DNA of 64,000 nt from Alphaproteobacteria bacterium (GTDB taxonomy: Bacteria > Pseudomonadota > Alphaproteobacteria > MPNO01 > UBA830): positions 1,728,001 to 1,792,000 of the forward strand of contig OZ219791.1 of NCBI GenBank assembly GCA_964291215.2, read 5' to 3'. The notes beneath the pieces were generated by a model. It was not told the origin of the DNA. It searched no databases and was given only the letters and a program-made list of their open reading frames with translations. The translations under genes and the position numbers were made by a program. Positions 14,718 through 56,539 of this stretch are shown here, in pieces; positions within the stretch are counted from its first letter, which is position 1, and every line of letters starts with the position of its first letter.

Positions 14718-14907
14718 GTCTTTCCGTCCTGTAGTCTTGTCGGTTGGGCTGGGTAGACGAGTTGCCGGCGAGCTTGGCTGGGCAGTTCAGTATAATCCAT
14801 TCCGTCACTCCTGTAAGGCCAGCCGGGCTAGCGGATTATCGACATCATGCCTGACCACTTGGTGTCGAGCGTCGATGGCTCGGGCTGACGCCGCACCGAG
14901 GCGGTCG

Positions 14908-16320: not shown

Positions 16321-16694
16321 CGGTTCGGCAAGGAGTATTCGGGATTCGGGTTGGTTGATGATGACAATAGTGCGGTAATGCCGGTGGTCCACCGTTGCTG
16401 CTGCGGACAGGTTCCGGACGGTACTGACCGACCGTTGCTACATTGTGACGGCCAATCAGCGGCGCTGCAATCGGTCCCTGAACTCGATCGGATCCGATCG
16501 GGGCAAGGGGCGATGTGCGGGTCCTGAGCCCGGAAGCGCCGGCGATGCAGACAGACGGCGGGTGCTACTGGTCCGCTATCTGTTGAGTTCCGAGCGGCGA
16601 ATGGGCAAGTTTTACCCGCGCAACACGGCCTCACCCGGCGGGACTGTTTGACGGTTCACGGCCCGGGGTCGGGCTCGACACGGATGGTGCGGCC

Positions 16695-18152: not shown

Positions 18153-18761
18153 GGGAAAGTCCTGGGGTTACGATCAGTGCAACTACCAGCCGTGCGGCAG
18201 CCACTTCCTGCGCGAACCGACTTTTGTCGTCGAGTCTAACCGCTTGCGTTGGCGTGGCTGATGGAGGAGCTGCTGCGCAAGGTCTGCCACAAGGTCAACC
18301 CGATCGCATCCAAGACCCTGGACGAGGCTGACTGTCGGGTTGTACGCAAACGGTACCGCACGATCCTGACCCAGGACGTCAGGGAACTGCCCGAAATCCC
18401 GCTACGCCCGAAAGGAACAGGGGGGCGCGTCGCGAGGCCCGACGCGCACAACCTGCACAAACGCCTCGAGAACCACAGGAAGTTCGTCCTGCGCTTTATG
18501 AAAGGCCCCGATGTCAGCTTCAACAACAATACCGGAGAACAGAAGATCCGAATGGTAAAGGTCAAGATCAAGGTGTCTGGATGCTTCCGCACCATGCTCC
18601 ACGCAACCGCCTGGTGCCGGAGCTCAAGCTATTTGAGCTCCATGGCGACACTCCGCTATAATCCTCTCGTCGTAATTCAGATCGCGCTCGCCCGAAAGGC
18701 CGTAGACATGATCAAGTTGCACGACGACCAATCGGACTCTAAAATAGGGGCGAGTAGTTGC
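18153..18761 (+). pseudogene. IS66-family transposase 3' remnant with right end
   Basis: VSFNNNTGEQKIRMVKVKIKVSGCFRT; end GGGCGAGTAGTTGC; homologous to 60163-61695. Confidence 0.8.
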
Positions 18762-18831
18762 AGTCGCCCATGAGTATCTTGACACATCGGGTTCTTCCAC
18801 AACAATCTGAAGGGTAGAATCGAGCCAAGAT

Positions 18832-19878
18832 ATGGATATCCCTCCAGCAATCGTCGTTAGTTCCGGACGCTGCGGTTCGACCATGCTGTCCGACATTTTG
18901 AACTCGCATCCGGATATTCTCAGCATATCCGAATTGTTCATCCTGCAGGGCCGCGCCCTGTTCCACTATCGGCGCCTGACCGGTAACGAGATGTGGAGAA
19001 TCATTAGTAAGCAGTCAAGGGCGCAGCGTCGGCAACTCGACAGCCACTCTGAAGCTCTCTTATACCCGGTAGGCACCCCGCGTGGCCGCTATGCCGGCGC
19101 GAGTATACCTCCCATTTCGTGGGTTACGCTTCCGCACATCACCGACCGGCCCGACGAGCTGCTCGATGAACTTGAGCCGGTGATTCGCTCGCAGCCGCGT
19201 CAGTATGCGGCCGATCATTATCGAGCGATGTTTTCCTGGCTACGTCGGAAGTTCGACCGAAAGGTCTGGGTGGAACGCTCGGGCGGGGCCGGGATGTATG
19301 CGCCCAGATTAGCGACAATGTTTCCCGAGGCGAAGTTCATCCACCTCTACCGCGACGGGCGCGACACCGCCATGTCGATGAAGAATCATCCCGTGTTCCG
19401 CGAAGCCATGCGCTACATCGTGACCATGAGGAAGTATGGCGTGGATGCGTTGACGCCGATGACAGGGGTCTCGGGACATGCGTTTCGAGACTGGGCGATG
19501 CTGCGCACGCAACTCCTTATCTATGTCATCTTTCTGTTCAGCAGAACCAAAGACCGGGAATTCACCCTTCCCGAATTCGGGAAATTCTGGTCGGACATAG
19601 TGGAGCTGGCGGATCGGTTTCTCGACACGCTTCCGCCGGATAGGGTTCTGCGTGTGCGGTTCGAGGACATGCAGAACGAACCGGGGAGGGAGATTGCGCG
19701 CTTGGCGCGGTTTCTCGACCCGTCTCTCGAAGATCCGGAATGGGTGAAGGAGGCGGCCCGGATTCCCCGCCCGACACGCTCGAAGCTGAGAGACCTCAAT
19801 CCTACCGAGCGCGTCGCCTTGACCGAAGCATGTCGGCCGAGCCTTGATCGCCTCGGCTATGAATTGGGGGAAACATGA
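18832..19878 (+). CDS. PAPS-dependent sulfotransferase 1
   Basis: 5'PSB loop SSGRCGSTMLSDILNSHP, WVERSG, 3'PB HLYRDGRDTAMS, VRFED; stop overlaps next start (ATGA). Confidence 0.88.
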   Translation: MDIPPAIVVSSGRCGSTMLSDILNSHPDILSISELFILQGRALFHYRRLTGNEMWRIISKQSRAQRRQLDSHSEALLYPVGTPRGRYAGASIPPISWVTLPHITDRPDELLDELEPVIRSQPRQYAADHYRAMFSWLRRKFDRKVWVERSGGAGMYAPRLATMFPEAKFIHLYRDGRDTAMSMKNHPVFREAMRYIVTMRKYGVDALTPMTGVSGHAFRDWAMLRTQLLIYVIFLFSRTKDREFTLPEFGKFWSDIVELADRFLDTLPPDRVLRVRFEDMQNEPGREIARLARFLDPSLEDPEWVKEAARIPRPTRSKLRDLNPTERVALTEACRPSLDRLGYELGET

Positions 19879-22340
19879 ATCCATCACGTGCAGCCGGGAC
19901 CGGCCTGATAGGCGCACTCCCGTTTTCGGTCACGCTGCTGCTTGTGCCACTGGTGATAGCCATGGCACTGGACTTGTTGCCCGACTTCATTCCATGGGTT
20001 GTTCCATGGGTTATCTTGCCGCTTGTGCCCTACATCAAGATTCTAGAAATGTTATGCAAGAGCGATGTTCCGAATCTGGATCGTAATACGCCAGAGTCTA
20101 AGGTGTTCTGGCATATCGCTATCCTCGTTTTGTGGGCCGTACTTTATCCCTTGTTGGTGATCTTCATACTTTGGGCCGTATGCAACATACCGACCTTGTT
20201 GCTCTACGAACGTTTTGTTCTGGTTGTGTTTTGCGGAATGCTCGGGAGGCTCATCACTATAACATCGCACGACCTGATTCACAGGCCAACAGCATGGATG
20301 CGATGGTTGGCGGCATTCACGATGGGCGCAATCGCCATGCCGCACATGCACACGGAGCATGTCTACATGCACCATGCGGATGTCGCAACGCCGCGTGATA
20401 GGGAGTCCGCACGATTGGGGCAAAGCTATTATAGCTACTTTCTTACTGTACTTCCCTACGTCTATACGGAAGCCATTCGCGTCCAGCATCGCCGGTTGGC
20501 CCGTCGCGGTCTATCGTTCTGGCACAAGTCTAATCCGGTCTGGCTGTGGGCCGCCTTGTGGATCGGCTGGCCTGCTCTGGCGCTTGCTATCGGAGGATGG
20601 GCAGGGCTCGCAGCTTGGGTGTTTATTGTTCTGTTCGCAGCCTGGGGGATCAGAGCCGTCGACTACATACAACATTACGGTTTGCAACGTATTTTGAAGC
20701 CGAATGGCAAGTACGAACGGATCCAGCCGCATCATTCCTGGAATCACTCCAGTCCGTCGAACTATCTGTATTTTTCCATACAGCGGCACTCGGATCATCA
20801 CGACAAACCCACCAAGCCGTATCCACTGCTTCACGGCCTTCCCGAGGGCAAGGCTCCGAGCCTTCCGTCGCACTACGGTTCGATGATGACGTTGCTTCTC
20901 TTTCCATCGGTCTGGTTCAGGAAAATGAACCCGCTTGTCGAAGAGTGGCGCCGCAAATTCTATCCTGATATCAAGGATTGGCGGGCACTCTCCAGCGAGG
21001 CTTACCGTCACCGACCCGACTCGCTCCCCTTGATTTCGGAGATCATTCAGAGCGCACCTTGTCTGGCAAGATACATGGAATCCTGTTATCCGCTCATCGA
21101 CAGCTTAACTGGCCGCCAGTTTCAGCAGATTACCGTTCCCGACAACATCGGCATGGATCCTCACGAGTTGCTCCTTGCCCAGAGGGGTTTGTTGCGGCTC
21201 CATTACGGTCATGAGTTCGGTTACAGAGAAATGATCGAGGACATGGAACTTTCGGAAACGGACATGGCTGATGAAATCGCCGAAAAAGCGCAAATCTGGT
21301 GCAATGACCAAGCTTTCCAGATCGGCGTAAGGATGATGCAGGGGCACATCCTAGGGCAGGATGCCGGCCGGCCGCTCTCCAACATGGCCGACGCGGCGGT
21401 TACTCTGCTGGCGCGGGCCGTTCTCGACGAGTTTGTTGCCCGGCGAGGCCCGGTTCCCGGCAAGGGCGTTGCTTTTGTGGCCCTTGGTCTGTTTGGCGAA
21501 CGCCGAATAACGTTCGAGTCGGAAGTTGAGATCATTGCTTTGGCGGATGGCGCATCGGATATCGAAGGGAACGGTTTTCTCGTAGAGGATCATGCCGGCG
21601 AGTTTTGTCGTAGATTCAACAAGGTCGCAGCGCAGTGGTCGACCAACAACATGCTCGTCAAGTCCGCCCATATGCGGCCCCCGGGAAGTGGAAGGCAAAA
21701 TGTTACCGGCGCGCTTGAGCGTTTTGCTAAGGGTAGTGGGAAGCCGGATGGGGAGTATTTGCGGGAATTGGCGTCGGCAAGGGTTGTGTGCGTGGCCGGT
21801 GATCGCGCAGATGAGTTCGCTGAACAGTTCGAGGAAACTAGGCGCTCCCTTCTCCTCCGGCAATCTCCGTCGGCCGCCGATGTTCTTCACCCTGTGCCCG
21901 ACGAGGAAGGCGAGCGGTTACTCCCTGAGATTTTGGAAGGACCGGGCGGTCTGAGCGATCTCCAACGGGCTGTGCTCGTGTTGCGTCTGCGCTATGGCGA
22001 GAGTTATCCGGACATGACAGATGAGGTTGGCCCTGCAGCTGTCCTGAAAAAGGCCGGAGAACACGGAATTCTCGCATCGCAGGTTGCAGAGGATCTTGCC
22101 GAGGCAGCTGACTTTCTACTGGGCTTGGAATGTGTCCTGTCACTGGTGAACGGCGGTCAGAACGATGAGGCGTATAGGGAGGACGGGGTGAAGGCTGCCA
22201 TGGCCCGGGCCTGCGATGCCGGCGACTTTGAAGAGGTCGTTGCCAAAGCGAAGACGGCGGCCGCCTGCATCGCTGCATGTCCGGTTGCGGTTCTCGGGCC
22301 CGATGCAGGGGGGGGGCAGCTGATGACCTGCCCCCGTTGA
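19875..22340 (+). CDS. AlkB-type membrane di-iron hydroxylase/desaturase fused to degenerate GlnE adenylyltransferase-like domain
   Basis: TM helices and His boxes HDLIH, EHVYMHH, DYIQHYGL, QRHSDHH; C-half follows GlnE (AFQIGV, LSNMADAAV, VALGLFG..SEVEII, ARVV, GGLSDL); last codons read into an IS3 end. Confidence 0.8.
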   Translation: MNPSRAAGTGLIGALPFSVTLLLVPLVIAMALDLLPDFIPWVVPWVILPLVPYIKILEMLCKSDVPNLDRNTPESKVFWHIAILVLWAVLYPLLVIFILWAVCNIPTLLLYERFVLVVFCGMLGRLITITSHDLIHRPTAWMRWLAAFTMGAIAMPHMHTEHVYMHHADVATPRDRESARLGQSYYSYFLTVLPYVYTEAIRVQHRRLARRGLSFWHKSNPVWLWAALWIGWPALALAIGGWAGLAAWVFIVLFAAWGIRAVDYIQHYGLQRILKPNGKYERIQPHHSWNHSSPSNYLYFSIQRHSDHHDKPTKPYPLLHGLPEGKAPSLPSHYGSMMTLLLFPSVWFRKMNPLVEEWRRKFYPDIKDWRALSSEAYRHRPDSLPLISEIIQSAPCLARYMESCYPLIDSLTGRQFQQITVPDNIGMDPHELLLAQRGLLRLHYGHEFGYREMIEDMELSETDMADEIAEKAQIWCNDQAFQIGVRMMQGHILGQDAGRPLSNMADAAVTLLARAVLDEFVARRGPVPGKGVAFVALGLFGERRITFESEVEIIALADGASDIEGNGFLVEDHAGEFCRRFNKVAAQWSTNNMLVKSAHMRPPGSGRQNVTGALERFAKGSGKPDGEYLRELASARVVCVAGDRADEFAEQFEETRRSLLLRQSPSAADVLHPVPDEEGERLLPEILEGPGGLSDLQRAVLVLRLRYGESYPDMTDEVGPAAVLKKAGEHGILASQVAEDLAEAADFLLGLECVLSLVNGGQNDEAYREDGVKAAMARACDAGDFEEVVAKAKTAAACIAACPVAVLGPDAGGGQLMTCPR

Positions 22341-22563
22341 CTGGTCCAGTCGGAATGTTAGTGCATTGACGATTTCTCCGCCAGCTTGGCGTGACGACTG
22401 TCTCGGGTGCCGGCGGCTGGTATCTCAAGCTGCCATTTGGCCGTATGGCGTTGTAGTGGCGCCGCCATGCTTCAATGAGGATCCGGGCCTCGTTCAAGGC
22501 TGTAGAAGATCTCCCCGTCGAAGAACTCGTCGCGGAGGCGGGCGTTGAAGCTTGTAGCCGTTT
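22324..22563 (-). pseudogene. IS3-family remnant (integrase core C-terminus and right end)
   Basis: FNARLRDE..GEIFYSLNEARILIEAWRRHYNAIRP; terminus TGACCTGCCCCC. Confidence 0.8.
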
Positions 22564-22680
22564 CCCACTTCCAGTCTGAAGTGCAACATCCGGCTCTCAT
22601 CGCAGTGAGGGCGTAGCCCGAACGGAGATGAGGGCCGGACGTTGCACAAATTTTTCCCCTCTGCCCTGCTCGATTCCGCC

Positions 22681-23801: not shown

Positions 23802-23844
23802 GGAACAGCTTCAGTTCCTTCAACATCGAGCTTATGCAACGCCT

Positions 23845-30199: not shown

Positions 30200-31220
30200 T
30201 TGACGACCCGCAGCGACATGCCCGAATGTTTCGATTCTGAGTCGATAGGAAAGCTCGAAACCGTTGATGTCGGCAGCAGTACGGCCGGGGATGAAGGCCG
30301 TGTGCGCGAGATCGTCGGCCAATACGCTGCCCATATCATCTGGACGGTCAGCAAGCCGTTGCTGCCGAAGCGGCACTATCTCTTGATTTTGCTAATATCC
30401 CCGCGGTTGCGCAGATCACCGAGATCGTTTATCGGATCGATTCAAGTACGCGGGAGCATATGGTCGCAAGGACTCTGGGTCCCGAAGAAACCGGCTATTG
30501 CAAGTTGTCGCTTGATCGACCTGTTGAGATGGCTGTTGCCACCGACGGCAGAGCGAGAGTGTCCCGTCTTGCCGACCGACTTACCGGCGAGGAAGCCAGC
30601 ATAGGCACCATTGATTTCGCGTTCCGCAGTGTGGCCAGTGTCGTCCGACAGAAGTTGAAGGTTAACAAGGCGACGAGGTCGCGCGCGCTCAAGCATCGCC
30701 CCTGCGTGTTATGGATGACCGACTCATCCGGGGCAGGGAAATCGGCTATCGCCGACCGTGTGGAACAGAAGCTTCATGCGAGAGGCCGGCGCACATATCC
30801 CCTGGACGGGGACAATGTCCGGCTCGGGCTCAACAGGGAACTCGGCTTCACCGGCGCGACCGGGTCGAGAATATCCGTCGCGTGGCCGAGGTCGCGAAGC
30901 TGATGGCCGATGCAGGCCAAATTAGTGCCCGCACGGAAATGACCGTTTCCTTCATCTCTCCGTTCAGGTCGGAACGCAGCATGGCGCGCGATTCGGTAGA
31001 GAAAGGCGAGTTCCTGGAGATATTCGTCGACGCGCCGATTGCGGTCTGTGAGGTGTGCAACCCGAAGGGTCTCTACGCCAAAATGCACAGAGGCGAAATC
31101 ATGAACTTCACCGGGATCAATTCTCCTTACGAACCGCCGAACGCTCCCGAACTGCGGGTCGATACGACGACGATGATGGTGGACCTCGCCACGGACCCAG
31201 TCGGTCGATTGCTGGATTGA
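30200..31220 (+). pseudogene. cysNC: CysN C-terminus / APS kinase pseudogene
   Basis: [24 protein letters not shown] (altered P-loop), [44 protein letters not shown] across frameshifts. Confidence 0.85.
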
Positions 31221-31295
31221 TGTCAGGATATCCTCTGCAGTACACTGGGCGCACCCCTTGCTCGCCGGTTGTTATGGCAGGCGAAGGGCCGCAAG

Positions 31296-32360
31296 ATGAC
31301 TAGGAGGCATTCGATGACCGGCGATAAATTGCACTGTCCACCGGTGATCGTTCTCAATTCCGGCCGTTGCGGGTCGACGATGTTGTCCACCATGTTGAAT
31401 CTGCATCCGGGTATTCTCAGTATTTCCGAGTTCTTCACGCTTCACAGCACTGCCCTATTCAGTCGATGGCGCATGACCGGAAACGGAATGTGGCATGTTC
31501 TTACCCATCAGCCGCAATTGGTTCGCTATCTTCTGAAAGAAGACTACGATGAGCTGCTGTATCCATTCAAAGATCCTGACTCGCGGTTTGGACGAAAGAC
31601 TGTCCCTCCGATTTTGTGCGTGACACTTCCTCACTTGACAAATGAATATGAAGCACTTTTCGATGAACTGGAATCGGTTGTGCGAAATTTCCCACGCCAA
31701 TCTCCTGCAAACCACTGTCGCAGTCTTTTTGATTGGTTATGTCAGAGATTCGACCGACGGGTCTGGGTGGAACGCTCGGGCGGGTCTTCCATGTATGCAT
31801 CAAGGCTCATATACAGGTTCCCGGAAGCCAAGGTGATCAACATGCATCGGGATGGACGGGATGTTGCGCTATCCATGTTTCAGCATCATCCATTTAGAGG
31901 GATTGCACCCTACATCATCGCGCTCCAGAAGCGAAGATACGATCCCTTTAGAGTTGAAGCGAAACGTGATGAATTCTGGGATTCCATGGCGCTGCGCCTG
32001 CAACCGTTGAAGTACCTGTTGCGATTCCCGATTCCGATGTCCGCTGACCGGTTGGAGATTACGCACTTCGGTGCCATATGGAGCTCGATGGTAGAAGCGG
32101 CTCAGGACTTCATCCAGCACTTGCCGTCCGAGCAAGTTCTGGATGTGCGATTTGAAGATTTGCAGCAAAATGCGGAGCAGGAGCTGCGTCGTATAATCCG
32201 ATTTGTTTCTTGCGACCTGGAAAACGAGGACTGGGTGCGGAACGCAGCTTGGATACCGAAGCCGTCCCGGTCCAAGTTTGCGCGGCTCGATCCGCAGGAG
32301 CGGGCCGCATTGACAGAGGCCTGCCGGCCGGGGCTGGAGCAGCTCGGCTACGCCGTGTAG
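31296..32360 (+). CDS. PAPS-dependent sulfotransferase 2 (paralog of 18832-19878)
   Basis: NSGRCGSTMLSTMLNLHP, WVERSG, HRDGRDVALS, VRFEDL, same C-terminal ALTEACRP.L..LGY. Confidence 0.88.
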   Translation: MTRRHSMTGDKLHCPPVIVLNSGRCGSTMLSTMLNLHPGILSISEFFTLHSTALFSRWRMTGNGMWHVLTHQPQLVRYLLKEDYDELLYPFKDPDSRFGRKTVPPILCVTLPHLTNEYEALFDELESVVRNFPRQSPANHCRSLFDWLCQRFDRRVWVERSGGSSMYASRLIYRFPEAKVINMHRDGRDVALSMFQHHPFRGIAPYIIALQKRRYDPFRVEAKRDEFWDSMALRLQPLKYLLRFPIPMSADRLEITHFGAIWSSMVEAAQDFIQHLPSEQVLDVRFEDLQQNAEQELRRIIRFVSCDLENEDWVRNAAWIPKPSRSKFARLDPQERAALTEACRPGLEQLGYAV

Positions 32361-32486: not shown

Positions 32487-33914
32487 ATGACCAACCGCAC
32501 GACGCCGTCGTGTCCGGCCGGGGTCTCCACGGCGCGGAACGCGGCGGATGGCGTCTACACGACCGATCCGATCGGGCGCCACCTGCTCCGCATGGCTGCC
32601 CCCGCTTCGACGGCTTTGCTGTTCATCTTCCTTGCCGATCTGGTGACCCTTTTCTATGTCTCTCTGTTGCGCGACGAGCGATTGATCGCTGCTGTCGGAC
32701 TCGCGCGATTTATCGAGTATCTCGTTATTGCTATCGGGCTTGCCTTCGCGTCTGCGGCGACCGTGCAGGTCAGCCAGTCGCTCGGTGCAGGCGACAAGGC
32801 GCTGGCCGCGCGACAAGCAACCTCATGCTTGGTCGTCAGCCTAGTGGTTCTGTGCGCTGCCGTCGGGTTGGTGCAGGTTTTTCGCGGCGCGGCTCTTGCC
32901 TCTTTCGTGGAGCTCGGCGCGGTTTTTGACGCTGCAGACCTCTATCTGGAGATCGCTCTGTATTCCGTACCTCTAGCAGCGGTGAGCTTGGCGATGGGCG
33001 CGATATTGCGCGGCGCTGGTGAGGTGCGCCGGTCCGTGGTGGTGACTGTTTCGGGCAGCCTAGCGGCTCTGGTGGTCAGCCCTGCACTGATTTTCTGGGC
33101 CGGGCTGGGCCTGGAGGGAGCCGCTTGGGCGTTGCTTGCGGACCGCGCGATCAGCGCGGCACTCGGCATCGGGTTCGTCATCCGCAAGTGCCGCCTGCTG
33201 AAGCTTCCCGACGTTTTCGAGACGGTGCGCGATGCCAGGGCCGTTCTGGCAATCGCGGGACCAGCCGTCCTGTCGGAACTCGCGACGCCTGCAATTTGGT
33301 TGCTGACAACTTGGTGGGTCGCGGCGTTCGGAGACAGCGCCCTTGCCGCATGGGCTCTGCTCGCTCGGCTCACTCTGATGGCCGGGTGCGGGATTATGGC
33401 ACTGAGCATCGCGCTCAACCCGGTTCTGGGGCAGAACTACGGCGCTGGCAACACTGCCCGGACCGCCGCCAGTCTTCGCACCGCGGTGATGTTCTCCGTC
33501 TGCTACGTCATTGCCGTCTGGGCGCTGTTCGTGTTGACATCCGGTCAGATCTCCCGAATGTTCGATCTGACGGCGGAAGCGTCGGGCATAGTGCATATTT
33601 ATGTCCTGTACGGTTTCGCCGCCATGATCCCGGCAAGCATGGGGGCGCTCTGCAGGCCGGTATTCTACCATTTCAGACGTTCCTTCTGGACGACAGCTTT
33701 GGATTGGATGGCAAACGCCCTGTCGCTGCTGGCGTTGATCCTGCTTGTGGGAATGCCGGACGGGGAGCCGGTAGTTTTCGCGCTTGGCGCGGCGGCGGCG
33801 GTGTGCGCCGTGCCGATCGGCAAAGCTCTCGCCGGTTCTCTTTCGCTCGGGCTTGCTTGGCGCCTTGTTGCGCAAATGCGAGCCCCGGAACCATCACCGA
33901 AGGATGCGCCATGA
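32487..33914 (+). CDS. MATE family efflux transporter
   Basis: VSQSLGAGD, AILRGAG, GLEGAAWA, GQNYGAGN; many TM segments; start uncertain. Confidence 0.85.
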   Translation: MTNRTTPSCPAGVSTARNAADGVYTTDPIGRHLLRMAAPASTALLFIFLADLVTLFYVSLLRDERLIAAVGLARFIEYLVIAIGLAFASAATVQVSQSLGAGDKALAARQATSCLVVSLVVLCAAVGLVQVFRGAALASFVELGAVFDAADLYLEIALYSVPLAAVSLAMGAILRGAGEVRRSVVVTVSGSLAALVVSPALIFWAGLGLEGAAWALLADRAISAALGIGFVIRKCRLLKLPDVFETVRDARAVLAIAGPAVLSELATPAIWLLTTWWVAAFGDSALAAWALLARLTLMAGCGIMALSIALNPVLGQNYGAGNTARTAASLRTAVMFSVCYVIAVWALFVLTSGQISRMFDLTAEASGIVHIYVLYGFAAMIPASMGALCRPVFYHFRRSFWTTALDWMANALSLLALILLVGMPDGEPVVFALGAAAAVCAVPIGKALAGSLSLGLAWRLVAQMRAPEPSPKDAP

Positions 33915-36337
33915 GACGGAGGACGAGACTGTGGATGACTTTACCGGCGGCGTTCGTCGTCGCGGTCCTCCTCGCAGGCGCAGCGAGCTGGCTCTGGCTG
34001 CGCACATCGCTGCCGCGGATCGACGGTGAGATCCGGCTTCCGGGCCTCCAGCAACGGGGAGAAGTGATCTACGATGTCAACGGCATTCCCCATATTCGGG
34101 CAGCGACGGTTAACGATGCCTATTTCCTTCTCGGATACGTGCATGCGCGCGACCGGATGTTCCAGATGGACTTCGCGCGCCGAATCGGCAGCGGAACACT
34201 CTCGGAAGTCGTCGGCGAACGAACGCTTTCCATAGACCGCATGGCGCGAACGCTCGGGACAGCGCGGAGCGCGGAGCAGATACTCTCTCGTCTGCCGGAG
34301 GATGCGGTCGGGGTTCTGAATGCCTATTCCGCCGGCATCAATGCCTGGCTGACAACGCGGTCTGGAGCGCTACCGCCCGAATTCGTCTTGCTCGGTTACG
34401 AACCGGAACCGTGGCGGCCGAAGGATTCGCTGGCGCGGAGCGGCGTCAAACTAGCCAACCTGGTCTGGGAGTGGGAGAATGAAGCCCTTCGCGGCGCGCT
34501 TGCAGCAAAGTTGTCTCCCGAACAACTCTCTGATCTTTTCCCCGAGGACATTGATGGCGCCTTGGCCAGCGCCGGTCGTGCCCGAACGATGGCGGGACAC
34601 GCGCCCCTTGCCACCCAGTGGAGTTCACTGTGGAGGGCCATGTCTGGTGGCTCGCAATCGGAGTTGCAGGCGTCCAATGCGTGGGCGGTAGCGGGCGGTT
34701 GGACGGCAAGCGGCCTCCCTGTACTGGCCAGCGATCCCCATCTCGCGCTGACATCGCCAGGACTCTGGTATCTCGCGCGCATGGAAGCGCCGGGACTCAG
34801 TCTGGCGGGTGCAACGGTTCCAGGAGGACCGGTTTTCGTTCTGGGCCACAACGGCACCATTGCGTGGGGCGTGACCAATGCAGGCAGCGATTTTCAGGAT
34901 TTCTTCATAGAGCGAATAAGCGAAGGCGAGCCGGAGCGGTACGACGCGCCTGGCGGGTCACGCCCGTTCGACGTGCGGACCGAGAGCATTGCCGTGAAGG
35001 GACAGGAACCCGTGGAATTGGTCGTCCGGGAAACGCGCCACGGCCCGGTGGTTTCTGACCTCGCGCCCGACTTCGCCGACCTCAATGGGCATTATCCCGG
35101 AAAGCGGGACCATGTCATCGCATTCTCCTCCACGCTCCTGCGCGACGACGACATGACCATTCTCGCCTTTCTCAGGCTGAACCGGGCGCGCAACTGGTCG
35201 GGGTTCACGACCGCTCTAGAGAGTTTCCACTCTCCTCATGTCAGCATTACCTATGCCGATATAGTTGGGAATATCGGTTCCCTGTCGCCGGGGCGGATTC
35301 CGATACGAAACGCCGGTGATGGCTGGCTCCCCTCCACCGGCTGGACCGGCGAAGGGGACTGGTCCGGGTTCGTGCCGTACGATGCCCTTCCGCGCGCCTT
35401 CAACCCGCCGTCGGGCCTCATCGTGCACGCCAATCAACGCATCGTCCCTACCGACCATCCGTGGTTCCTCGCCCGCCATTGGCCGCCGCCATACCGGGCA
35501 GAGCGGATCAAGACGCACGTTGAGCAGGTCGTACCGCGCACGGTTGCAACGGAAACGGCGCTGCAGCACGACGAGTTCTCCGGTGCCGCGGCTGACCTCA
35601 TCCCCCTGTTGCTGACGCTCGCCGAACCCGACCGGATGGACGAAAAGGCGAAACGCGCATTGTCCCTGATTCGTGGCTGGGACTTCCGTATGGTGCGCGC
35701 ATCGGCGACGCCGCTGATATTTGCGGCCTGGCTTGCGGAAGTAAACCGCGGTCTCTACGCCGACGAGCTCGGCGACCTCTTCCAGCCCTTCTACGGCCTC
35801 CGGCCGGGCACGGTTGTCCACATGCTGACGAGCCGTCGGGCATGGTGCGACGATGTGACGACGACCGCTGTCGAAACCTGCGGTCAGACCGTCACTGTTG
35901 CTCTCTCACGTGCTATCGACGATCTGGCGCGCCGCTATGGAGACGATATGAAGGACTGGCGTTGGGGTGAGGCGCACCGGGCCGTATTCGACCATATCCT
36001 GCTTGGCCGCATTCCGGTCCTGAAGCGGTTGGCGAACGTCAGCATAGAGACGGGAGGCGGCAGCTTCACTGTCAATCGCGGGCGGCACAACATCGCCAAT
36101 GAAGAGGCGCCCTTCGCCGCCAACCACGGCTCCGGCTATCGCGCGGTTTACGATCTGTCTGATCTCTCGAACTCTGTGTTCTCCGTCGGAACCGGTGCCA
36201 GCGGGAATTTCCTGTCCTGGCGCTACGACAACACGACCCGCCGGTGGCGGGACGGCGATTACGTGCGCATTCCTCGAACCCGCGCCGAGGCCCTGCATGC
36301 GGCGACAGGGGTGCTGACGCTCCTGCCAGAGCAGTAG
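33911..36337 (+). CDS. Penicillin/AHL acylase family Ntn hydrolase
   Basis: N-terminal anchor, GIPHI, GYVHARDRMFQMD, catalytic SNAW, SDPHL, WGVTN, ETRHGP, WRWGEAH; ATGA overlap with MATE. Confidence 0.92.
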   Translation: MRRRTRLWMTLPAAFVVAVLLAGAASWLWLRTSLPRIDGEIRLPGLQQRGEVIYDVNGIPHIRAATVNDAYFLLGYVHARDRMFQMDFARRIGSGTLSEVVGERTLSIDRMARTLGTARSAEQILSRLPEDAVGVLNAYSAGINAWLTTRSGALPPEFVLLGYEPEPWRPKDSLARSGVKLANLVWEWENEALRGALAAKLSPEQLSDLFPEDIDGALASAGRARTMAGHAPLATQWSSLWRAMSGGSQSELQASNAWAVAGGWTASGLPVLASDPHLALTSPGLWYLARMEAPGLSLAGATVPGGPVFVLGHNGTIAWGVTNAGSDFQDFFIERISEGEPERYDAPGGSRPFDVRTESIAVKGQEPVELVVRETRHGPVVSDLAPDFADLNGHYPGKRDHVIAFSSTLLRDDDMTILAFLRLNRARNWSGFTTALESFHSPHVSITYADIVGNIGSLSPGRIPIRNAGDGWLPSTGWTGEGDWSGFVPYDALPRAFNPPSGLIVHANQRIVPTDHPWFLARHWPPPYRAERIKTHVEQVVPRTVATETALQHDEFSGAAADLIPLLLTLAEPDRMDEKAKRALSLIRGWDFRMVRASATPLIFAAWLAEVNRGLYADELGDLFQPFYGLRPGTVVHMLTSRRAWCDDVTTTAVETCGQTVTVALSRAIDDLARRYGDDMKDWRWGEAHRAVFDHILLGRIPVLKRLANVSIETGGGSFTVNRGRHNIANEEAPFAANHGSGYRAVYDLSDLSNSVFSVGTGASGNFLSWRYDNTTRRWRDGDYVRIPRTRAEALHAATGVLTLLPEQ

Positions 36338-39017: not shown

Positions 39018-42000
39018 CTATTCATGCCTGCCGTCGGCGATCATCACCATCGCCGGCAGAAGGAATAGGATGAATATGCCTGCCAGCACGAGCCCGCCTA
39101 GCATGCTGGCGACGAACGGCACCAGGAAGAGCAGGGCATCGCTGCGCTCGTAGAGCAGAGGCGAGAGGCCGAGCACCGTTGTCAGGCTGGTGAGCAGCAC
39201 GGCGCGGAAACGGTGGCGCGTAGCGGCTGCCGCGGCGGCAATCGCCGGCAGGGCGTCGTTCTCCCGGCGGATGATGTTGTAGCGGTCGAGCAGCACCAGC
39301 GCATCGTTTACGACGACGCCCGAGACGGCCACGATCCCGAAGATTGACATGAAGTTGAAGTCCCAGCCGAGTATCCAGTGCATCAGCACGGCGCCAGCGA
39401 AGGCGGCCGGGATTCCGGCCGCAGCGACCAGCGGCTTCCAATAGCTGCGCAGGAACGCCGCCATGACTGCATACATGGCGATCAGCGCAAGGGGTGCCAG
39501 CGTGGCTAGCGTTTGCAGCACCCGCCTTTCGTTTCGTGCTCCGCCGTCCCGTTCCACGGCTATTCCAGGATGCGCGGCGCGCAGCTCCTGCACGATGCCG
39601 TCTTCGATCAGCCGGCGGGCTTGGATCGGCGTGATGACCGCCGCGTCGGCTCTCGCCTCGACGAAGACCGCCGGCTTGCCGTCGATCCGCGTCAGCTTGG
39701 CCAGTTCCTGTTTTTCGGTAAGCGTGGCTACCAAGAAGAGCGGAATCTCGCCGCCGCCGGGGCGCTCAATGCGCATCCCGGCGAGTTCCTTCAGGCTCCG
39801 GCGGCGTTCGGCGGGATATCTGACAACGACCTCGATTTCCTCGCGGCCACGCTGGATGCGCTGCGCTTCAGCGCCATGAAGCCGGGCGCGCAATTGCGCT
39901 CCCAGCAGCGCCGGTGAAAGCCCGGCCGCCTTGCCGGCCTGTGTCAATTCTATATCGAGCTGCCGCTTGCCGGGCGAGAGATTGTCGTAAACACCGTACA
40001 CACCGGGTATCGCAGCGAGCGCCGAGCGCAGTTTCTGCGCGGCCCCCTGCAACAGCTCCCGATCATTATGTCGGATCGAATAGGCCAAGTTCGGCCTGAT
40101 CTTGCCTCGGGTCAACACATATTCCACATGTTCCAGACTCGAAACATCCCCGATACGGGCCCGCCATGCGCGCTCCACTTCGCCGGGCGCCGCTTCGCGG
40201 ACGGGACGGCGGTAAAGGTGCGCCTTGACCGTCGCCACATGTTCGCCCCTGACCGCGTCATCCCTGGGCCAGGTGGGCAGGATATTCCCGACAACCATGC
40301 TGACAGACTTGATTGCTGACCCTCCCAGATCATTGTTCACACCTTTGGCCGCATCCCTGAAGCGCTCGGCGGCGGCAAGCGTGGCCTCGAACGGCGATCC
40401 GGCAGGCAGGCGTAACTCCGCTTGGATCGAGTTGCTGATGTCCGTCCTCTCCTCCGCAAACAGGACCCGTACCTCGTGGTAGCGTACAAGCAGCACTGCA
40501 CAGACAACGACGAGGATCCCGATTCCAACCGCCATCCAGACATGACGCACCGACCAAGAAACGGTTGCAGCCACCACGCTGTCGCGGACATTGTCGAGCC
40601 AGCCGCGCACCCCGCCTTGCCAACCGCTCAGTGGCGGTGCGCTCCAAGGTTTGTCATGCGCCAGGTGCGCCGGCAGGATGAGGAACGCCTCCACCAGCGA
40701 TATGGCGAGCACGAACAGCGCTACATAGGGAATCATGCGCATGATCTGCCATCCGCCCTCGGTGACGAACAGCAAGGGGACCAGCGCGATCAGCGTCGTG
40801 GCTGCGCCGACGACCAGCGGCCCGACCACAGCTCTCGCGCCCGAAATCGCCGCGGCCAGCGCCGAGCCGGCCCGAGCCCGTTCCGTGGCGATGCTCTCCC
40901 CGACGACAACGGCATCATCCACCACAATGCCGATCATCAGGAAGAACGCGAACAGGGTGCCCATATTCAGCGTCAGGCCGGCCGGAGCGAAAAAGATAAG
41001 CGACCCGATAAAGGCGAGCGGAATGCCGAAAGTCGTCCAGAACGCCACCCGGAGGTCGAACACTGCGACCAAGCAGATGAACACCAGCGCCGCTCCGATC
41101 GCGGAATTGGCAAAGATTCGTGTCAACCGCTCGACGGTCGCCTCGACCTTGTCGTCCCAGATACCGACCGAAACGTGCGCGGGCGGGCTATAACCGCCAA
41201 GGAATTCCACGACAGCGTTCCTCATCTCCTTGGTCGATTGCTTGCCGGTCGCGGTTATCCGCAGGAATACTGCCGGTACGCCGGCCGTTTCCGTCAGAAC
41301 ATTTTCATCGACGAAACCGTCGCGAATTCTGGCGACATCGCCGAGCGTTACCACCGTTCCGTCGAGCCGTGTAATGAGCGGTATATCCTTGAACTCTGCA
41401 CTATGCTCCCGCTTCGCGACCACCTGCAGTACAACGCCGCCTGCGTCGGTCCGCAGCTCTCCGAAGGTCAGGTTGAGAGAATCCCGACTGATTGCCTGCC
41501 TGATGTCGTCTATCTTGAGCCGGTGTCGTCGCAACTCCTCTTCGCTTAGTTCTATAGTGATCTCCCGGTCCCGCGTGCCTTCCATCCTTATGTGGGACAC
41601 GGTCGGCAGGGCCAGCAACGCGTCGCGCAAGCTTTCCGCTGCAAGCCGAAGCTGGTTTTCGGTCACCGCACCGGAAGACACCGCGATAGTTACGACATCG
41701 TTTCTCCACCGGACCAGCTTGATTTCCGGCGGTTCGGCGTTTGGCGGCGGAAAATTCTCTAAGGCGTCGATCGCACGCGTGACGTCGTTCAGCACCGTTG
41801 TGTTGTCGGCAAAGACTTCAAGTTCGACATCAATCAGACCGGTGCCTTCCTGCGCGGTGCTTACGACCCGGCTGACGCCGGATATGCCGATAATCGCTTC
41901 CTCGACCCGGCGGTTTATGTCCTCCTGCACTTCTGTTGGCGAGGCGCCGGGCACTGGAATCATGACGGAGACGCGCCGCAGGTCGAACTCCGGGAGGTCC

Positions 42001-42149
42001 TGGACTGCGAGCCGCGAACCGGCGATTGCGCCGGCGACGATCAGGAAGACCATCAGCAGGTTTGCGGCGACGGGGTTTGCCGCAAACCAGGCGATCGGAC
42101 CCCGCTGCACAGGCGTTCCGGTCCCGCCTCCATCGTCCACGTTACTCAT
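39018..42149 (-). CDS. RND efflux transporter permease (AcrB/AcrD/AcrF family)
   Basis: NPVAANLLM, GIVVDDAVVVGE, GVVVNDALVL, RFRAVLLTSLTT. Confidence 0.93.
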   Translation of the reverse strand: MSNVDDGGGTGTPVQRGPIAWFAANPVAANLLMVFLIVAGAIAGSRLAVQDLPEFDLRRVSVMIPVPGASPTEVQEDINRRVEEAIIGISGVSRVVSTAQEGTGLIDVELEVFADNTTVLNDVTRAIDALENFPPPNAEPPEIKLVRWRNDVVTIAVSSGAVTENQLRLAAESLRDALLALPTVSHIRMEGTRDREITIELSEEELRRHRLKIDDIRQAISRDSLNLTFGELRTDAGGVVLQVVAKREHSAEFKDIPLITRLDGTVVTLGDVARIRDGFVDENVLTETAGVPAVFLRITATGKQSTKEMRNAVVEFLGGYSPPAHVSVGIWDDKVEATVERLTRIFANSAIGAALVFICLVAVFDLRVAFWTTFGIPLAFIGSLIFFAPAGLTLNMGTLFAFFLMIGIVVDDAVVVGESIATERARAGSALAAAISGARAVVGPLVVGAATTLIALVPLLFVTEGGWQIMRMIPYVALFVLAISLVEAFLILPAHLAHDKPWSAPPLSGWQGGVRGWLDNVRDSVVAATVSWSVRHVWMAVGIGILVVVCAVLLVRYHEVRVLFAEERTDISNSIQAELRLPAGSPFEATLAAAERFRDAAKGVNNDLGGSAIKSVSMVVGNILPTWPRDDAVRGEHVATVKAHLYRRPVREAAPGEVERAWRARIGDVSSLEHVEYVLTRGKIRPNLAYSIRHNDRELLQGAAQKLRSALAAIPGVYGVYDNLSPGKRQLDIELTQAGKAAGLSPALLGAQLRARLHGAEAQRIQRGREEIEVVVRYPAERRRSLKELAGMRIERPGGGEIPLFLVATLTEKQELAKLTRIDGKPAVFVEARADAAVITPIQARRLIEDGIVQELRAAHPGIAVERDGGARNERRVLQTLATLAPLALIAMYAVMAAFLRSYWKPLVAAAGIPAAFAGAVLMHWILGWDFNFMSIFGIVAVSGVVVNDALVLLDRYNIIRRENDALPAIAAAAAATRHRFRAVLLTSLTTVLGLSPLLYERSDALLFLVPFVASMLGGLVLAGIFILFLLPAMVMIADGRHE

Positions 42150-42159
42150 GCGCCGTCCC

Positions 42160-43278
42160 CTATGCCCGCGGTTTCGCGACGGTTACGGCAAGGCCCTCGC
42201 GGGCTGCCGGCAATGTGCCGACAACGACGCCGTCGCCCGCGTCGAAGGCCTCCACTACCCATCCGCCGTCGATTCGGCCCAGCCCTCGCGGTTTGATCGA
42301 GTTCAGCACGCCGCCCCTGATAACCCAGACACGGTCGTTCGCCTGTGCGGCGGCTTCGGGCAGCACATAGACATTCCGATGCACCGGGCCCTCAATGGAG
42401 ATTTCGGCGAAGGTGTGGGGCAGCGGTCGGCGCGCGATCGGCAGGTCGTCCGAAAACTTCAGGAAAACCGATGCAAGCCGGCTTGTCGGCGCCACGACCG
42501 GGGAAACCCCCGCGACATTCGCCCGGTAGACCCCCGTCCTGGTGTGGACCATGGCGGACCGTCCGGCGATAGGCGAGAGATGCCTCAGGTCCCGTTGTTC
42601 GATGGGAGCGGTCGCGCGAATGGCTTCGGGCCGATAAACCACGCCTAGCACCGCAGCCTCGCCGACCTTTTCTGCCGGTCCTGCAAGTTCGCCGACCTCG
42701 ACGCTCGAAGAGATCACACGGGCATCGAAGGGAAGGGAAATCTTCGTCCTGCGAAGTTGCAATTCTGCCAGTCGCAGTGCCACGAGCGCCTGTTCCAGCT
42801 TCAGGGCCGTGCCCGCCGTATTTTCGTTCCGGGCCTCCTGCGCGCTTATTTCGTGTTCAAGACCCGCAACCTCCAATCGGGCCTGTTCGACTTTGAGCTC
42901 ATATTCTTCGGGATCGATCCTGATAAAGACTTCATCTTCCGCTATCGATCCGCCGGGCGCGAAGTTCGGCGAGACCCAGACAACGCGCCCGACGACTTCA
43001 GACATGACGGTTGCCCGCTCCTTCAGCACGACAGAGCCGGTCAGACGGAGGGTAAGCGCCCGTTCGGTCAATTCCGGTCGAACGATGTTGACGATCGGTC
43101 TTCTTTCCTCAGTCGCCAGCGCCGACCGGTCAACACGCTCAACCCGTTCCGGCGCCCGGGCGAGATAGAGCGCGACGGCGACCGCGCTGAGAATGACGGC
43201 AAGTTGCAGATAGCCGAGCCATTTCGGCCCGGCGGGCCCTGCTGTGTTCTGCGGCATCGTCTTTATCCAGATTCGCAT
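42160..43278 (-). CDS. RND periplasmic adaptor (membrane fusion protein)
   Basis: N-terminal TM, EVVGRV..G, coiled coil, ISLPFDA; upstream of permease. Confidence 0.88.
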   Translation of the reverse strand: MRIWIKTMPQNTAGPAGPKWLGYLQLAVILSAVAVALYLARAPERVERVDRSALATEERRPIVNIVRPELTERALTLRLTGSVVLKERATVMSEVVGRVVWVSPNFAPGGSIAEDEVFIRIDPEEYELKVEQARLEVAGLEHEISAQEARNENTAGTALKLEQALVALRLAELQLRRTKISLPFDARVISSSVEVGELAGPAEKVGEAAVLGVVYRPEAIRATAPIEQRDLRHLSPIAGRSAMVHTRTGVYRANVAGVSPVVAPTSRLASVFLKFSDDLPIARRPLPHTFAEISIEGPVHRNVYVLPEAAAQANDRVWVIRGGVLNSIKPRGLGRIDGGWVVEAFDAGDGVVVGTLPAAREGLAVTVAKPRA

Positions 43279-51313: not shown

Positions 51314-51825
51314 GACAATCATGCTTCTGCACAAGGACACTTGGCTGACTCGCACCGACAACGGCCCGGCGAGGCGAGCCAAGCCTCAACAACATTGCGC
51401 TCCGCGGTGATCTTCGCCAACCGCCGCGAGGCTATCGACTCCCTGACCCGGCCCCGTCAGGAATCGAAAACGAGTTATTCGGGTCGGAAACGCTGCCCGT
51501 GTTGGCATGCGGGCGGCCCCGAAGCCACGGAATCCAGCCAGAACATGCCGAATTTGGCCTCCGTTTTTTTCAACCTCCCGAAAGATCAGTTGCGGAATGG
51601 GGTAGTCCTGCTACACCGTCACACTGCGCTGGACAAGACGGAGCATATGCATAACGAAACATCATTCGGCCGGAATCCCGGCCCCTGTGCCTGATGTTAC
51701 CACTAATGGCCCAACTTGCCGCATAGAACTGCGACGGAGTGGTACCTGCGGCCCATTTCGCCTATTGTGTCGCGTGCACGGCCGTCACGCTGATTGGCCG
51801 CAACTTCGGGGAAGCCAGCGCTCTA

Positions 51826-53211
51826 ATGGTTGTCGAAGTGCATAGCGACGGTTCTTCGGTGCTTCCGCCTCCGGACGAGGGGACGGCCGTGGCGCCTGCG
51901 CACCCGGCCGGCAGGGGCGGCCCGTCCCGTGCGCCCGGACGTATCGTGCCCCTGTTGTTCAAGGCGGCCGTCCCGCTGGTCGTGCTTGGCGGTGCCGTCA
52001 CGGTCTATCAGTACATGCTTACGACGAAGCCGCCTGTCGTCCGCAAGCCGGTGGCGGAAAAGGTTTTCTTCGTCGATACCGTGACGGCGCGGAAAAGCGC
52101 GGTCACGCCGCAGCTGGTGCTCTACGGCACCATCGTCGCCCGGCGGCAGGTCGATCTGCGCCCCCTGGTCTCTGGTCGGGTCGTTCGCGTTGCCGAGACA
52201 TTTGCCGACGGTGGCATCGTGCGCAAGGACGACCTGTTGGTCGAGATTGATTCGTTCGACTACCGGATCGCGGTGACTGAAGGCAAGGCCCGGCTCGCCG
52301 AGGCCCGGGCCCGCCTGACCGAGATTGAGGCTGATTTGAAGGGTGAGAAGGCCCTGATTGAGCAGGAGCGGGCACAGACCGTGTTGCGCCGGCGTGACCT
52401 TGTCCGGCGCCAGTCTTTGCTCGACCGCGGCGCCGGCACCGAGAAACTTCTTGACGACGCTAAGCTGGCATTGAACAGCCAGCAGCAAAGGTTGGACGAG
52501 CGGGTCCGTCGGGCCGCGATCTTGGAAGCGCGTCTCGCCCAGCAGCAGGCCGTGATCGCACGGGCGGAATGGGCACTCACCCGCGCCGAGAGAAACTTGC
52601 GCGATACCCGCCTGCTGGCGCCGTTCGACGGCTTCCTGGGCGACATTTCCACCGGGATCGGCAAGAAGGTCGGCGGCAATGACAAAATCGCCCGCCTGAC
52701 TGACGCCGGCAGTTTCGAAGCGGAATTCCAGGTCAGTGACGCTCAGTACGGCCGTCTCGTCCGCGAAGGCGGGGTGATAGGCCGGCCAGTCTCCGTCGTC
52801 TGGCGGACCGGCGGGCAGAGCTTCGCCTTTCCGGCGGCCATCGCCCGGGTCTCAGACCTGGTGTCGAGCACGAGCGGCGGCGTGAACCTGTTCGCCCGGC
52901 TGCGGGCTACCGACACGTCGACACTGCTGCGGCCGGGTCTGTTCGTCGAGATCGAAATGGTGGACACGACCTACCGGGACGTCTACCGGCTGCCGGACGA
53001 CGCCCTGCACGAGGATCGCTTCGTCTATGTCGTGGACGGCGGCCAGCGTTTGGTCCGCCGCGAAGTGACTGTAGCGGGCCGCGTTGGCAACGATATCCTG
53101 ATGCGCGGGCCTGTTGCGGACGGCGAGCGGATCGTGGCGCGCATCTTTCCCGAAATCGGCCATGGCCTGAAGGTGGACGTTCCGACCGGGTCCGTCCAGA
53201 ACCACCGCTAG
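51826..53211 (+). CDS. RND periplasmic adaptor (membrane fusion protein)
   Basis: TM anchor, VSGRVV, long coiled coil, LLAPFDG, LRPGLFV. Confidence 0.9.
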   Translation: MVVEVHSDGSSVLPPPDEGTAVAPAHPAGRGGPSRAPGRIVPLLFKAAVPLVVLGGAVTVYQYMLTTKPPVVRKPVAEKVFFVDTVTARKSAVTPQLVLYGTIVARRQVDLRPLVSGRVVRVAETFADGGIVRKDDLLVEIDSFDYRIAVTEGKARLAEARARLTEIEADLKGEKALIEQERAQTVLRRRDLVRRQSLLDRGAGTEKLLDDAKLALNSQQQRLDERVRRAAILEARLAQQQAVIARAEWALTRAERNLRDTRLLAPFDGFLGDISTGIGKKVGGNDKIARLTDAGSFEAEFQVSDAQYGRLVREGGVIGRPVSVVWRTGGQSFAFPAAIARVSDLVSSTSGGVNLFARLRATDTSTLLRPGLFVEIEMVDTTYRDVYRLPDDALHEDRFVYVVDGGQRLVRREVTVAGRVGNDILMRGPVADGERIVARIFPEIGHGLKVDVPTGSVQNHR

Positions 53212-53221
53212 CGCAGCTGCC

Positions 53222-56200: not shown

Positions 56201-56539
56201 GTCAACAATTCGATCATCCTGGTCATGGTGGTAAAGGAGCGGATGGAGGCTGGCGAACCGGCCTACGAGGCTATCGCCAACGGTTCGCGCGACAGGCTGC
56301 GCGCCATCATCCTGACCACGGCGACGACCGTCGGCGGTCTGACCCCCCTCCTGTTCGAGACCGACCTCCAGGCGCAGTTCCTGATCCCGATGGCGATTAC
56401 CCTAGTCTTCGGTCTTATGGTCGCGACCTTTCTGGTCCTGTTCGTCGTGCCGTCTCTGATCGCCATCCAGGTCGATTTCGAGCGCCTTTTCCTGGGCCGC
56501 GACGCGCCCGTCGCCGACGTGCCGACACCCGCCGAATGA
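53222..56539 (+). CDS. RND efflux transporter permease (AcrB/AcrD/AcrF family)
   Basis: AANLLM, GIIVDDAIVVGE, GIVVNNSIIL, RLRAIILTTATT; start uncertain. Confidence 0.93.
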   Translation: MTPPQDRPAMPAPRRPTVGFGPSKMHSKRDSIGLFARHRTAANLLMVLMLVAGAFGLNRMTTQFFPDFGIDMVLVTVVWPGASAGDVDGSIVQAVEREVRFIDSVKAVKSSAFEGRALITVEFEAGSDMQSALANVETAVGQVTTLPQDAETPTVRRIVRYDTLSRILVSGPYSESALKVYAKQIRDGLLRRGIDKIDLGGGRDEEILVEIKPETLRRMNLTLNEVAQKIHQVTQDVPSGDVAGRAERQLRSVGDVKSARELGRIEIKSFASGEKIWLRDIATVRETFDRNGKTYWRGGNRAIELHAKRAPADDALILADEVDKYLAEVGPTLPQNLKLEQFDVQADLVRSRINLLLENGATGLLIVLVVLFLFLNGWVAFWVAAGIPISLAATMLVMWVSGQSVNMVSLFSIIMAIGIIVDDAIVVGEHSEALHRQGYDNALAAEVGARRMAMPVFCAALTTIAAFLPLLLITDVIGSIIRTIPLVVIAVIVASLIECFLVLPGHMRHALAITERRRGRLRRWFAPLFGIPLVWLWPVIPPVLALRLLIRILMVFKRGFGRAFDFFRDRIFFPLVRLTIRWRYTTVALALAALIGAASIVAGGRVSFVFFANPELDNIFATAEFSAGTPRERTRAMVEEMEQAMRATEQDLTGDKNGLVRFSHRVIGFPIGTRSAAESPIQGGHVGSLFVQLVPADQRTIQADRFIAAWKQRIRNMPGLRQLNIESATGGPPGRDVDVRLTGASTIELKKAAEELKLVLKTIPGVLTMEDNLPYGKIETILELTPRGRALGFTTENVGRQVRNTFEGAIAKRFARGDEEVVVRVRFPKDRLTSEALHNLHLRAPNGSFVPLGAVVSIREKQGFARIKSEDGLREVAVTADLNTRVMTTQQAVAEMRKSGLDDIARKYGVDYRFEGRDKEQRRIFKDAQIGAGIGLALVFIILSWVFAGYLRPLVVMSVIPMGFIGAVLGHYLMGFDLSSLSIIGLIGLSGIVVNNSIILVMVVKERMEAGEPAYEAIANGSRDRLRAIILTTATTVGGLTPLLFETDLQAQFLIPMAITLVFGLMVATFLVLFVVPSLIAIQVDFERLFLGRDAPVADVPTPAE

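Follow-up and report, generated by a model that had tools for sequence, protein, structure and literature searches.

The 64,000-nucleotide window analysed here (positions 1,728,001 to 1,792,000 of contig OZ219791.1, assembly GCA_964291215.2, from an alphaproteobacterium of the GTDB lineage UBA830) carries an open reading frame (ORF) of 821 codons, P0001, in which an AlkB-type di-iron membrane enzyme is followed by a module derived from the adenylyltransferase GlnE. The ORF follows a sulfotransferase gene, ST1, and its ATG overlaps the ST1 stop codon, TGA (Table 1). A preliminary description made from the DNA letters alone had reported this overlap, which is found in identical form in two related loci (L002 and L004), and had proposed the fusion, with all AlkB histidine boxes in its N-terminal half. 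These claims are borne out by several lines of evidence. Pfam finds FA_desaturase at residues 115–337 (E 3e-26), GlnE at 464–564 (weakly, E 0.006) and GlnD_UR_UTase at 682–782, and residues 377–809 share 29% identity (E 2e-40) with the intact GlnE that the host itself encodes. An AlphaFold model built with 59 homologues (local confidence pLDDT 83; global score pTM 0.80) matches in Foldseek both FtAlkB, the AlkB of Fontimonas thermophila (8f6t), and the E. coli GlnE domains (3k7d, 1v4a).

An assembly artefact or a one-off fusion can be dismissed. The AlkB/GlnE junction is bridged without gaps by contigs of two of four public runs, all from one study. A scan of 28 of the 64 parts of the GTDB collection, from which the best 80 of 587 relatives were retained as loci, recovered the whole fusion ORF in 75 of the 80, the other five being cut, split or uncalled. 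A protein search with P0001 gave 68 matches, the majority full-length fusions of 30–85% identity, and an automatically named cluster of 108 members in the ESM Atlas has the AlkB-GlnE architecture. Six named phyla are represented among the GTDB loci, 61 of which are from Pseudomonadota. In a metagenome scan of general scope, covering 6 of 64 parts, one of the best 80 loci held the fusion. When 78 genomes from the host's order were examined, it turned up in just two genera. The GC content of third codon positions is 0.63 in the fusion gene versus 0.85–0.87 in two host genes. We infer that gene transfer has spread the fusion patchily. Since three of the 80 GTDB loci have titles naming sponges or Pori- taxa, and since the main gene context is that of a sponge cluster described below, many of the carriers are likely to be sponge symbionts. 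At one locus (L056) AlkB, module and YcaO share a frame of 1571 amino acids, a candidate triple fusion or a lost stop codon.

In the AlkB half all four histidine motifs, with nine histidines, are present (residues 132–136, 161–167, 263–269 and 303–309), and they are complete in 75–76 of 76 locus fusions, that of the window included. The best relative by sequence among solved proteins is FtAlkB (E 5e-44), and the predicted membrane fold agrees (8f6t, E 3e-13; 8sbb, E 2e-10). FastTree analysis of 119 AlkB halves groups the fusions in a single clade (98), whose sister group consists of stand-alone AlkBs that share a C-terminal tail; the nearest stand-alone relatives are AlkB-type and have the same FYP..W ending. 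The AlkB half is very likely to be an active oxygenase or desaturase.

The module starts part-way through the GlnE regulatory domain, in its second half, going by domain limits that we assume for GlnE; the first half is missing, and just the last ~440 residues of GlnE align. Its best NCBIfam match is the GlnE model PRK14108 (residues 458–797), far under the cut-off, and all NCBIfam cut-offs are missed. Relative to the host's GlnE, GKLGSRE has become GLFGERR, SDLD has become SEVE and DMRLRP has become HMRPP, substitutions that the preliminary description had listed; the loss of catalytic residues that it described is supported. The DxD..D triad (G-X11-DxD plus a third Asp) is intact in 15 of 16 GlnEs but in none of the 224 fusion sequences, of which 67 are from loci, 69 are from the protein database (with some overlap in genes between these two sets) and 88 are the fusions to RND pumps described below. 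The module is very probably non-catalytic.

It has not been left to decay. Over 28 non-overlapping pairs drawn from 67 genes (Nei-Gojobori; whole-gene dS 0.08–1.3), dN/dS is 0.26 for the whole module, which rules out neutral decay of the GlnE half, a point singled out for checking beforehand; the GlnE half is under purifying selection. The constraint is uneven: 0.14 in the regulatory-domain tail with its lineage-specific insert, equal to the 0.14 of the AlkB half, compared with 0.29 in the nucleotidyltransferase (NT) domain and 0.30 in the C-terminal bundle. The regulatory tail and insert are present in every whole fusion ORF examined. Residues common to the AlkB and RND fusion classes cluster at 395–497, in and beside the insert and not at the nucleotide site. 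With the insert as the focus of constraint, its surface is a candidate for binding or regulation, and the module probably has a function beyond folding. A complex prediction of the module with a trimer of the host's GlnB (score 0.14; mark, 0.32) speaks neither for nor against such a contact.

The preliminary description missed that the same module is also carried by RND pumps and that its ancestry lies among insert-bearing GlnEs. When all cluster representatives were searched with a profile, RND pumps ending in a dead GlnE module were recovered: 88 clusters of AcrB-type RND-GlnE fusions longer than 1200 residues, most of about 1520 (P0215, P0220-P0307), those with names being from Gammaproteobacteria. 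The eight loci fetched (L094-L101) have a membrane-fusion-protein gene or a second RND gene before the fusion, and the fused pumps belong to the RND family that flanks the sulfotransferase cluster of the window. One close pair of RND modules has dN 0.118 against dS 0.50; the rest of the 28 RND-module pairs are near saturation. A search for more long fusion partners gave only five GlnE-annotated proteins, in a list crowded by chance candidates, so that additional carriers may well exist. Two canonical glnE frames (L086:1271-7948 and L087:849-7007) are open for more than 2000 codons, and their extra N-terminal part looks like the antisense of the neighbouring gene.

Canonical GlnE has no insert, which is found in some alphaproteobacterial GlnEs. 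In the host genus the insert-bearing form is the only GlnE type, and in about seven of 50 other genomes it is a second copy beside a canonical GlnE. In the second copies L109-L112 the deadenylylase motif is kept and the adenylylation motif has decayed, so that these may possibly be one-way enzymes. Genes for STAS, SpoIIE-phosphatase or anti-sigma-kinase proteins lie near five of seven fetched insert-GlnE loci, and at L112 an ammonium transporter gene split by an insertion sequence (IS) adjoins the insert-bearing GlnE. Trees were made quickly with IQ-TREE (63 thinned rows) and with FastTree (66 rows, without the insert columns and six long-branch rows). In both, the dead modules form one clade (99) with AlkB (95–97) and RND (100) subclades; the latter nests them among the insert-bearing GlnEs (100; one member of this group has no insert), with the decayed copies alongside (93). 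By these trees the dead modules have a single origin within the insert-bearing alphaproteobacterial GlnEs, with long-branch attraction a possible contributor.

Two gene contexts were found. Neighbours were counted within 8 kb of the fusion at the 80 GTDB loci, and since flanks were cut the counts are lower bounds. YcaO is present at at least 68 loci, directly downstream of the fusion in 57; a gene for a protein of 372 residues at at least 57, an NHLP-leader gene at at least 55, NHLP ABC transporters at at least 54 and a halogenase at at least 26. The sequence LCCCW ends 38 of 48 short precursors. LCCCW is the core of SrpE, from the srp proteusin cluster of sponges, in the text available of PMC10858898 and PMC10286304, and the cluster's other genes are given as function-unknown in the part of PMC11832590 available. 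The 372-residue protein encoded after YcaO (L017:12689-13807 and homologues) has no Pfam match and no match in a sequence search of the PDB; only a fold search was productive. It is predicted to have an ABBA aromatic prenyltransferase fold (pLDDT 92), and all PDB matches listed for the model are prenyltransferases (best E 5e-6, TM about 0.4–0.55). This model suggests that the LCCCW proteusin is prenylated. Upstream of the fusion, a gene of 433 codons (L017:6585-7886 and homologues) encodes an NHLP leader-like N-terminus and a weakly squalene-cyclase-like domain.

The surroundings of the window's gene hold no YcaO and no LCCCW NHLP precursor. The host's YcaO cluster, on the other contig (L084:10320-17697, G000:C1), does not include the fusion; it comprises a pair of YcaO genes, one dehydrogenase-like gene, ABC transporters and precursors rich in Ser/Thr/Cys. 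P0001 belongs to a separate subclade (100) of the fusion family. Sulfotransferases are present at all six fetched GTDB loci of this subclade (L002-L006, L037) and at L105. They occur at six of the 80 GTDB loci, every one of that subclade, and none of the 68 YcaO-bearing loci has one. The expectation that homologues would neighbour sulfotransferases thus fails as a rule for the family, obligate coupling to a sulfotransferase is excluded, and the module is not tied to sulfation. Both types of cluster coexist in some genomes. Most loci of the window's subclade also hold genes for an acylase, a MATE exporter, RND pairs and CysN/APS-kinase, and none holds YcaO; L006 has a P450 gene in addition. A ferritin-like, acyl-ACP-desaturase-like gene was observed beside two clusters of this type (L004:16736-17635 and L037:5557-6369).

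Table 1. Features of the fusion gene, its sulfotransferase cluster and related GlnE loci. Positions are those of the window unless a locus is named.
Feature	Position	Strand	Basis
IS66 transposase remnant, directly upstream of ST1	18249..18773	+	domain match
ST1, sulfotransferase (Sulfotransfer_3), 348 residues	18832..19878	+	ORF, Pfam
P0001, AlkB-type di-iron enzyme plus GlnE-derived pseudo-enzyme module, 821 residues	19875..22340	+	ORF, domain and structure matches
AlkB half, residues 1-372	19875..20990	+	Pfam, His motifs, Foldseek
His motifs of the AlkB half	20268-20282, 20355-20375, 20661-20681 (Gln replaces iron-proximal Glu), 20781-20801	+	
GlnE regulatory-domain tail with lineage-specific insert, most constrained part of the module	20991..21344	+	
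Lineage-specific insert, about residues 414-450	21114-21224	+	
NT-fold domain, catalytic motifs lost (21486-21530, 21669-21683)	21345..21860	+	
GlnE C-terminal helical bundle, Pfam GlnD_UR_UTase match	21912..22274	+	
Broken CysN/APS-kinase remnant of the sulfotransferase cluster	30388..31220	+	domain match
ST2, second sulfotransferase, 48% identical to ST1	31269..32360	+	
MATE exporter of the sulfotransferase cluster	32487..33914	+	
Penicillin-amidase-family acylase of the sulfotransferase cluster	33911..36337	+	
Membrane-fusion protein and RND pump, first pair	39018..43278	-	
Membrane-fusion protein and RND pump, second pair	51739..56539	+	
Insert-bearing GlnE paralogues	L001:3471-6578, L093, L109-L113		

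ST1 has short motifs at residues 12 and 174 that we take to be of the type that binds 3′-phosphoadenosine 5′-phosphosulfate (PAPS). Solved structures give it weak matches only, to CurM-type and tyrosyl sulfotransferases (E of 0.001 or more), and for that reason no substrate can be read from them. In the host, IS elements have dispersed the genes of the cluster across some 57 kb, between 18.8 kb and a point about 12 kb beyond the window's end; an intact CysN/APS-kinase gene lies about 10 kb beyond that end. The intervening stretches 22340-31200, 36400-39000, 43300-51700 and 56600-64000 are mostly broken IS and integrase debris (IS66, an IS91 type with integrase, and others), and a DUF2971 gene (27621-28727) also splits the cluster. 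The other end of the window (256-16392) is an aromatic-catabolism island with cupin, luciferase-like monooxygenase, MarR, glutathione S-transferase, UbiD, TauD, FAA hydrolase, LigAB dioxygenase and aldehyde dehydrogenase genes.

Since the enzyme adjoins a gene for a prenyltransferase-fold protein in the srp context, and sulfotransferases and an acylase in the window's subclade, the simplest common role would be the oxidation of a hydrophobic tail. P0001 is likely to hydroxylate the alkyl or isoprenoid tail of a small molecule. The recurring neighbours of the fusion include no recognisable gene for a polyketide synthase, non-ribosomal peptide synthetase or terpene synthase, and so the substrate is probably imported or drawn from the membrane. 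ST1 would then sulfate the hydroxylated product with PAPS supplied through the CysN/APS-kinase genes of the cluster, and the MATE and RND pumps would export it, whether for detoxification or for production. Hydroxylation feeding sulfation, the order put forward in the preliminary description and known from Cyp128/Stf3, is somewhat favoured as the likeliest role in the host genome; sulfotransferases occur at every fetched locus of the subclade. It does not extend to the family. In the larger srp clade the neighbouring prenyltransferase-fold protein may prenylate the LCCCW peptide, and the fusion may oxidise the prenyl group. The module would act through the regulatory-domain tail and insert, perhaps by binding a partner or ligand common to the RND fusions and the insert-bearing GlnEs; it cannot be specific to peptides, to sulfation or even to oxygenases. 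Taken as a whole, a tailoring hydroxylase followed by sulfation and export, with a non-catalytic docking or regulatory module, is given a probability of about 0.5.

Several observations weigh against this proposal. Some fusions lie outside either type of cluster (L089, L106), and the IS-broken cluster of the host may be decaying. The C-terminal bundle is gone in seven of the 80 GTDB loci, in which the insert is retained, and the dN/dS near 0.3 of the NT domain could also come from folding constraint alone. Rubredoxin, of which the preliminary description had noted none in the window, was not found anywhere in the 99%-complete host genome; it is absent from 34 of 48 fusion-bearing genomes and present in 14. 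The lack of an adjacent rubredoxin gene is not special, since a rubredoxin motif is also rare beside stand-alone AlkB relatives (two of 80 loci), and it does not serve as a hallmark of the fusion. Finally, the glutamate before the HYG histidine (E271/E281), which in FtAlkB ligates or adjoins one iron in the text available of PMC10113152 and PMC10110569, is Gln266 in P0001. Gln stands there in 76 of 76 locus fusions and in 67 of 71 database fusions; the Glu is kept in 58 of 80 stand-alone AlkB matches, in all 77 stand-alone relatives from metagenome loci, and in a few fusions. The chemistry may therefore be desaturation, or weaker than that of AlkB.

This leads to the alternative that the AlkB half is a desaturase or oxidase and not a hydroxylase. 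It would carry out thiazoline oxidation or prenyl desaturation in the srp context and, in the window, acyl-chain desaturation independent of sulfation. A host gene that we take to be azoline-dehydrogenase-like has a homologue in just one of the 80 loci, in keeping with such a role, and in the desaturase SCD1 water occupies the place of the altered glutamate in the text available of PMC10110569. However, the overall sequence and fold are AlkB-type, a sulfotransferase requires a hydroxyl acceptor, by established chemistry, and among the fusions that retain the Glu is one in the srp context (L144). This alternative is considered unlikely.

The module could also be a passenger, acquired by chance, carried along as the srp and sulfotransferase clusters spread, and constrained by folding or membrane-protein stabilisation alone. 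Evolution of the NT and C-terminal parts is roughly twice as rapid as that of the enzyme half, and the loss of the bundle noted above points the same way. RND genes adjoin the AlkB fusion in 11 of 81 rows, which offers an easy rearrangement route to the second fusion. Such a history is nevertheless hard to reconcile with a regulatory tail and insert that are as constrained as the enzyme and kept by all whole fusion ORFs examined, with the retention of the module on two unrelated carriers across six phyla, or with the low dN of the close RND pair, and we think it doubtful.

A nitrogen-status sensor, with PII, glutamine or glutamine synthetase as ligand and with the oxygenase or pump switched by nitrogen supply, has about the same, rather low, standing. 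The adenylylation fold is kept whole and the regulatory domain in part, PII binds and steers GlnE in the available text of PMC12409994, and an ammonium transporter gene stands beside one insert-bearing GlnE, at L112. PII was found in 22 of 22 genomes searched, a presence that says little because almost all genomes have it (13 of 14 controls). Against a sensor, the module lacks the first half of the regulatory domain, and the residues shared by both fusion classes cluster in and beside the insert, a segment absent from canonical GlnEs. That the module has gained a new catalytic activity with a rebuilt active site, like some pseudokinases, is highly improbable: the NT fold is confidently predicted and SelO offers a precedent (PMC12409994, available text), but the former catalytic positions vary within both the AlkB and RND classes and the replacement residues are not shared.

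The docking or regulatory module of the preferred proposal can be placed in a wider, more tentative scheme. A paralogous insert-bearing GlnE with an already decaying adenylylation site may have given rise to a portable pseudo-enzyme tag, grafted onto an oxygenase and an RND pump, through which, in sponge symbionts of many phyla, a cytoplasmic signal (nitrogen status or a STAS/phosphatase partner switch) might govern how secondary metabolites are modified and exported, or link the two processes physically. For srp this would be a new tailoring of RiPPs, peptides that the ribosome makes and that are modified after translation: the membrane di-iron oxidation of a prenylated peptide. The analysis pinpoints a conserved, unassigned enzyme in a biosynthetic cluster that is among the most widespread in sponge microbiomes, with a candidate role in which prenylation precedes oxidation of the LCCCW peptide. 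It also shows a core enzyme of nitrogen regulation reused, without catalysis, as a module of two membrane proteins unrelated to each other; full-length GlnE paralogues whose adenylylation site has decayed look like surviving intermediates. AlkB variants with an altered iron site, in mostly rubredoxin-less hosts, are relevant to di-iron mechanism and biocatalysis, and the sulfotransferase cluster may be a bacterial route of hydroxylation, conjugation and export, or a source of sulfated lipids.

Neither the AlkB-GlnE nor the RND-GlnE fusion was found described in a literature search that did not reach the founding srp paper (Nguyen et al. 2021); that paper, with its supplement, very probably lists the AlkB-fusion gene with an annotation of some kind. 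The available main text of PMC9426513 does not contain the words GlnE, adenylyl or monooxygenase, the supplement text of PMC10858898, as available, holds nothing relevant to the fusion, and no function for the gene is given in the available portions of the srp literature (PMC10858898, PMC10286304, PMC9426513, PMC11832590). As described in those portions, the srp RiPP/proteusin cluster matches the main clade in its YcaO, LCCCW precursors, NHLP transporters and halogenase. The window's own locus differs in lacking a nearby YcaO or precursor and in its separate subclade, and is not an srp cluster. A parallel for the window is the sulfomenaquinone pathway, in which a hydroxylase and a sulfotransferase encoded in one operon, Cyp128 and Stf3, act in sequence on an isoprenoid lipid (PMC7404182, available text). 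Cyp128 is a haem P450 and P0001 is of the membrane di-iron type, so that the likeness is one of analogy only.

With GlnE (E. coli 3k7d and 1v4a; PRK14108) the module shares a collinear regulatory-domain tail, NT fold and helical bundle. It differs in lacking the deadenylylase domain at the N-terminus, one half of the regulatory domain and the catalytic triad, in the insert of roughly 25 residues, and in its attachment to membrane proteins. With the AlkB alkane 1-monooxygenases (Fontimonas thermophila AlkB and AlkB-AlkG; 8sbb, 8f6t) P0001 has in common the fold and the four motifs with nine histidines. The family usually has Gln in place of the iron-proximal Glu, its C-terminal fusion is a GlnE-derived module of 430 residues and not rubredoxin, and its gene context is biosynthesis or conjugation and not alkane catabolism. 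We rate P0001 as a variant of the AlkB kind that fits neither under alkane hydroxylase nor under GlnE, and the portable pseudo-enzyme module as its newest element.

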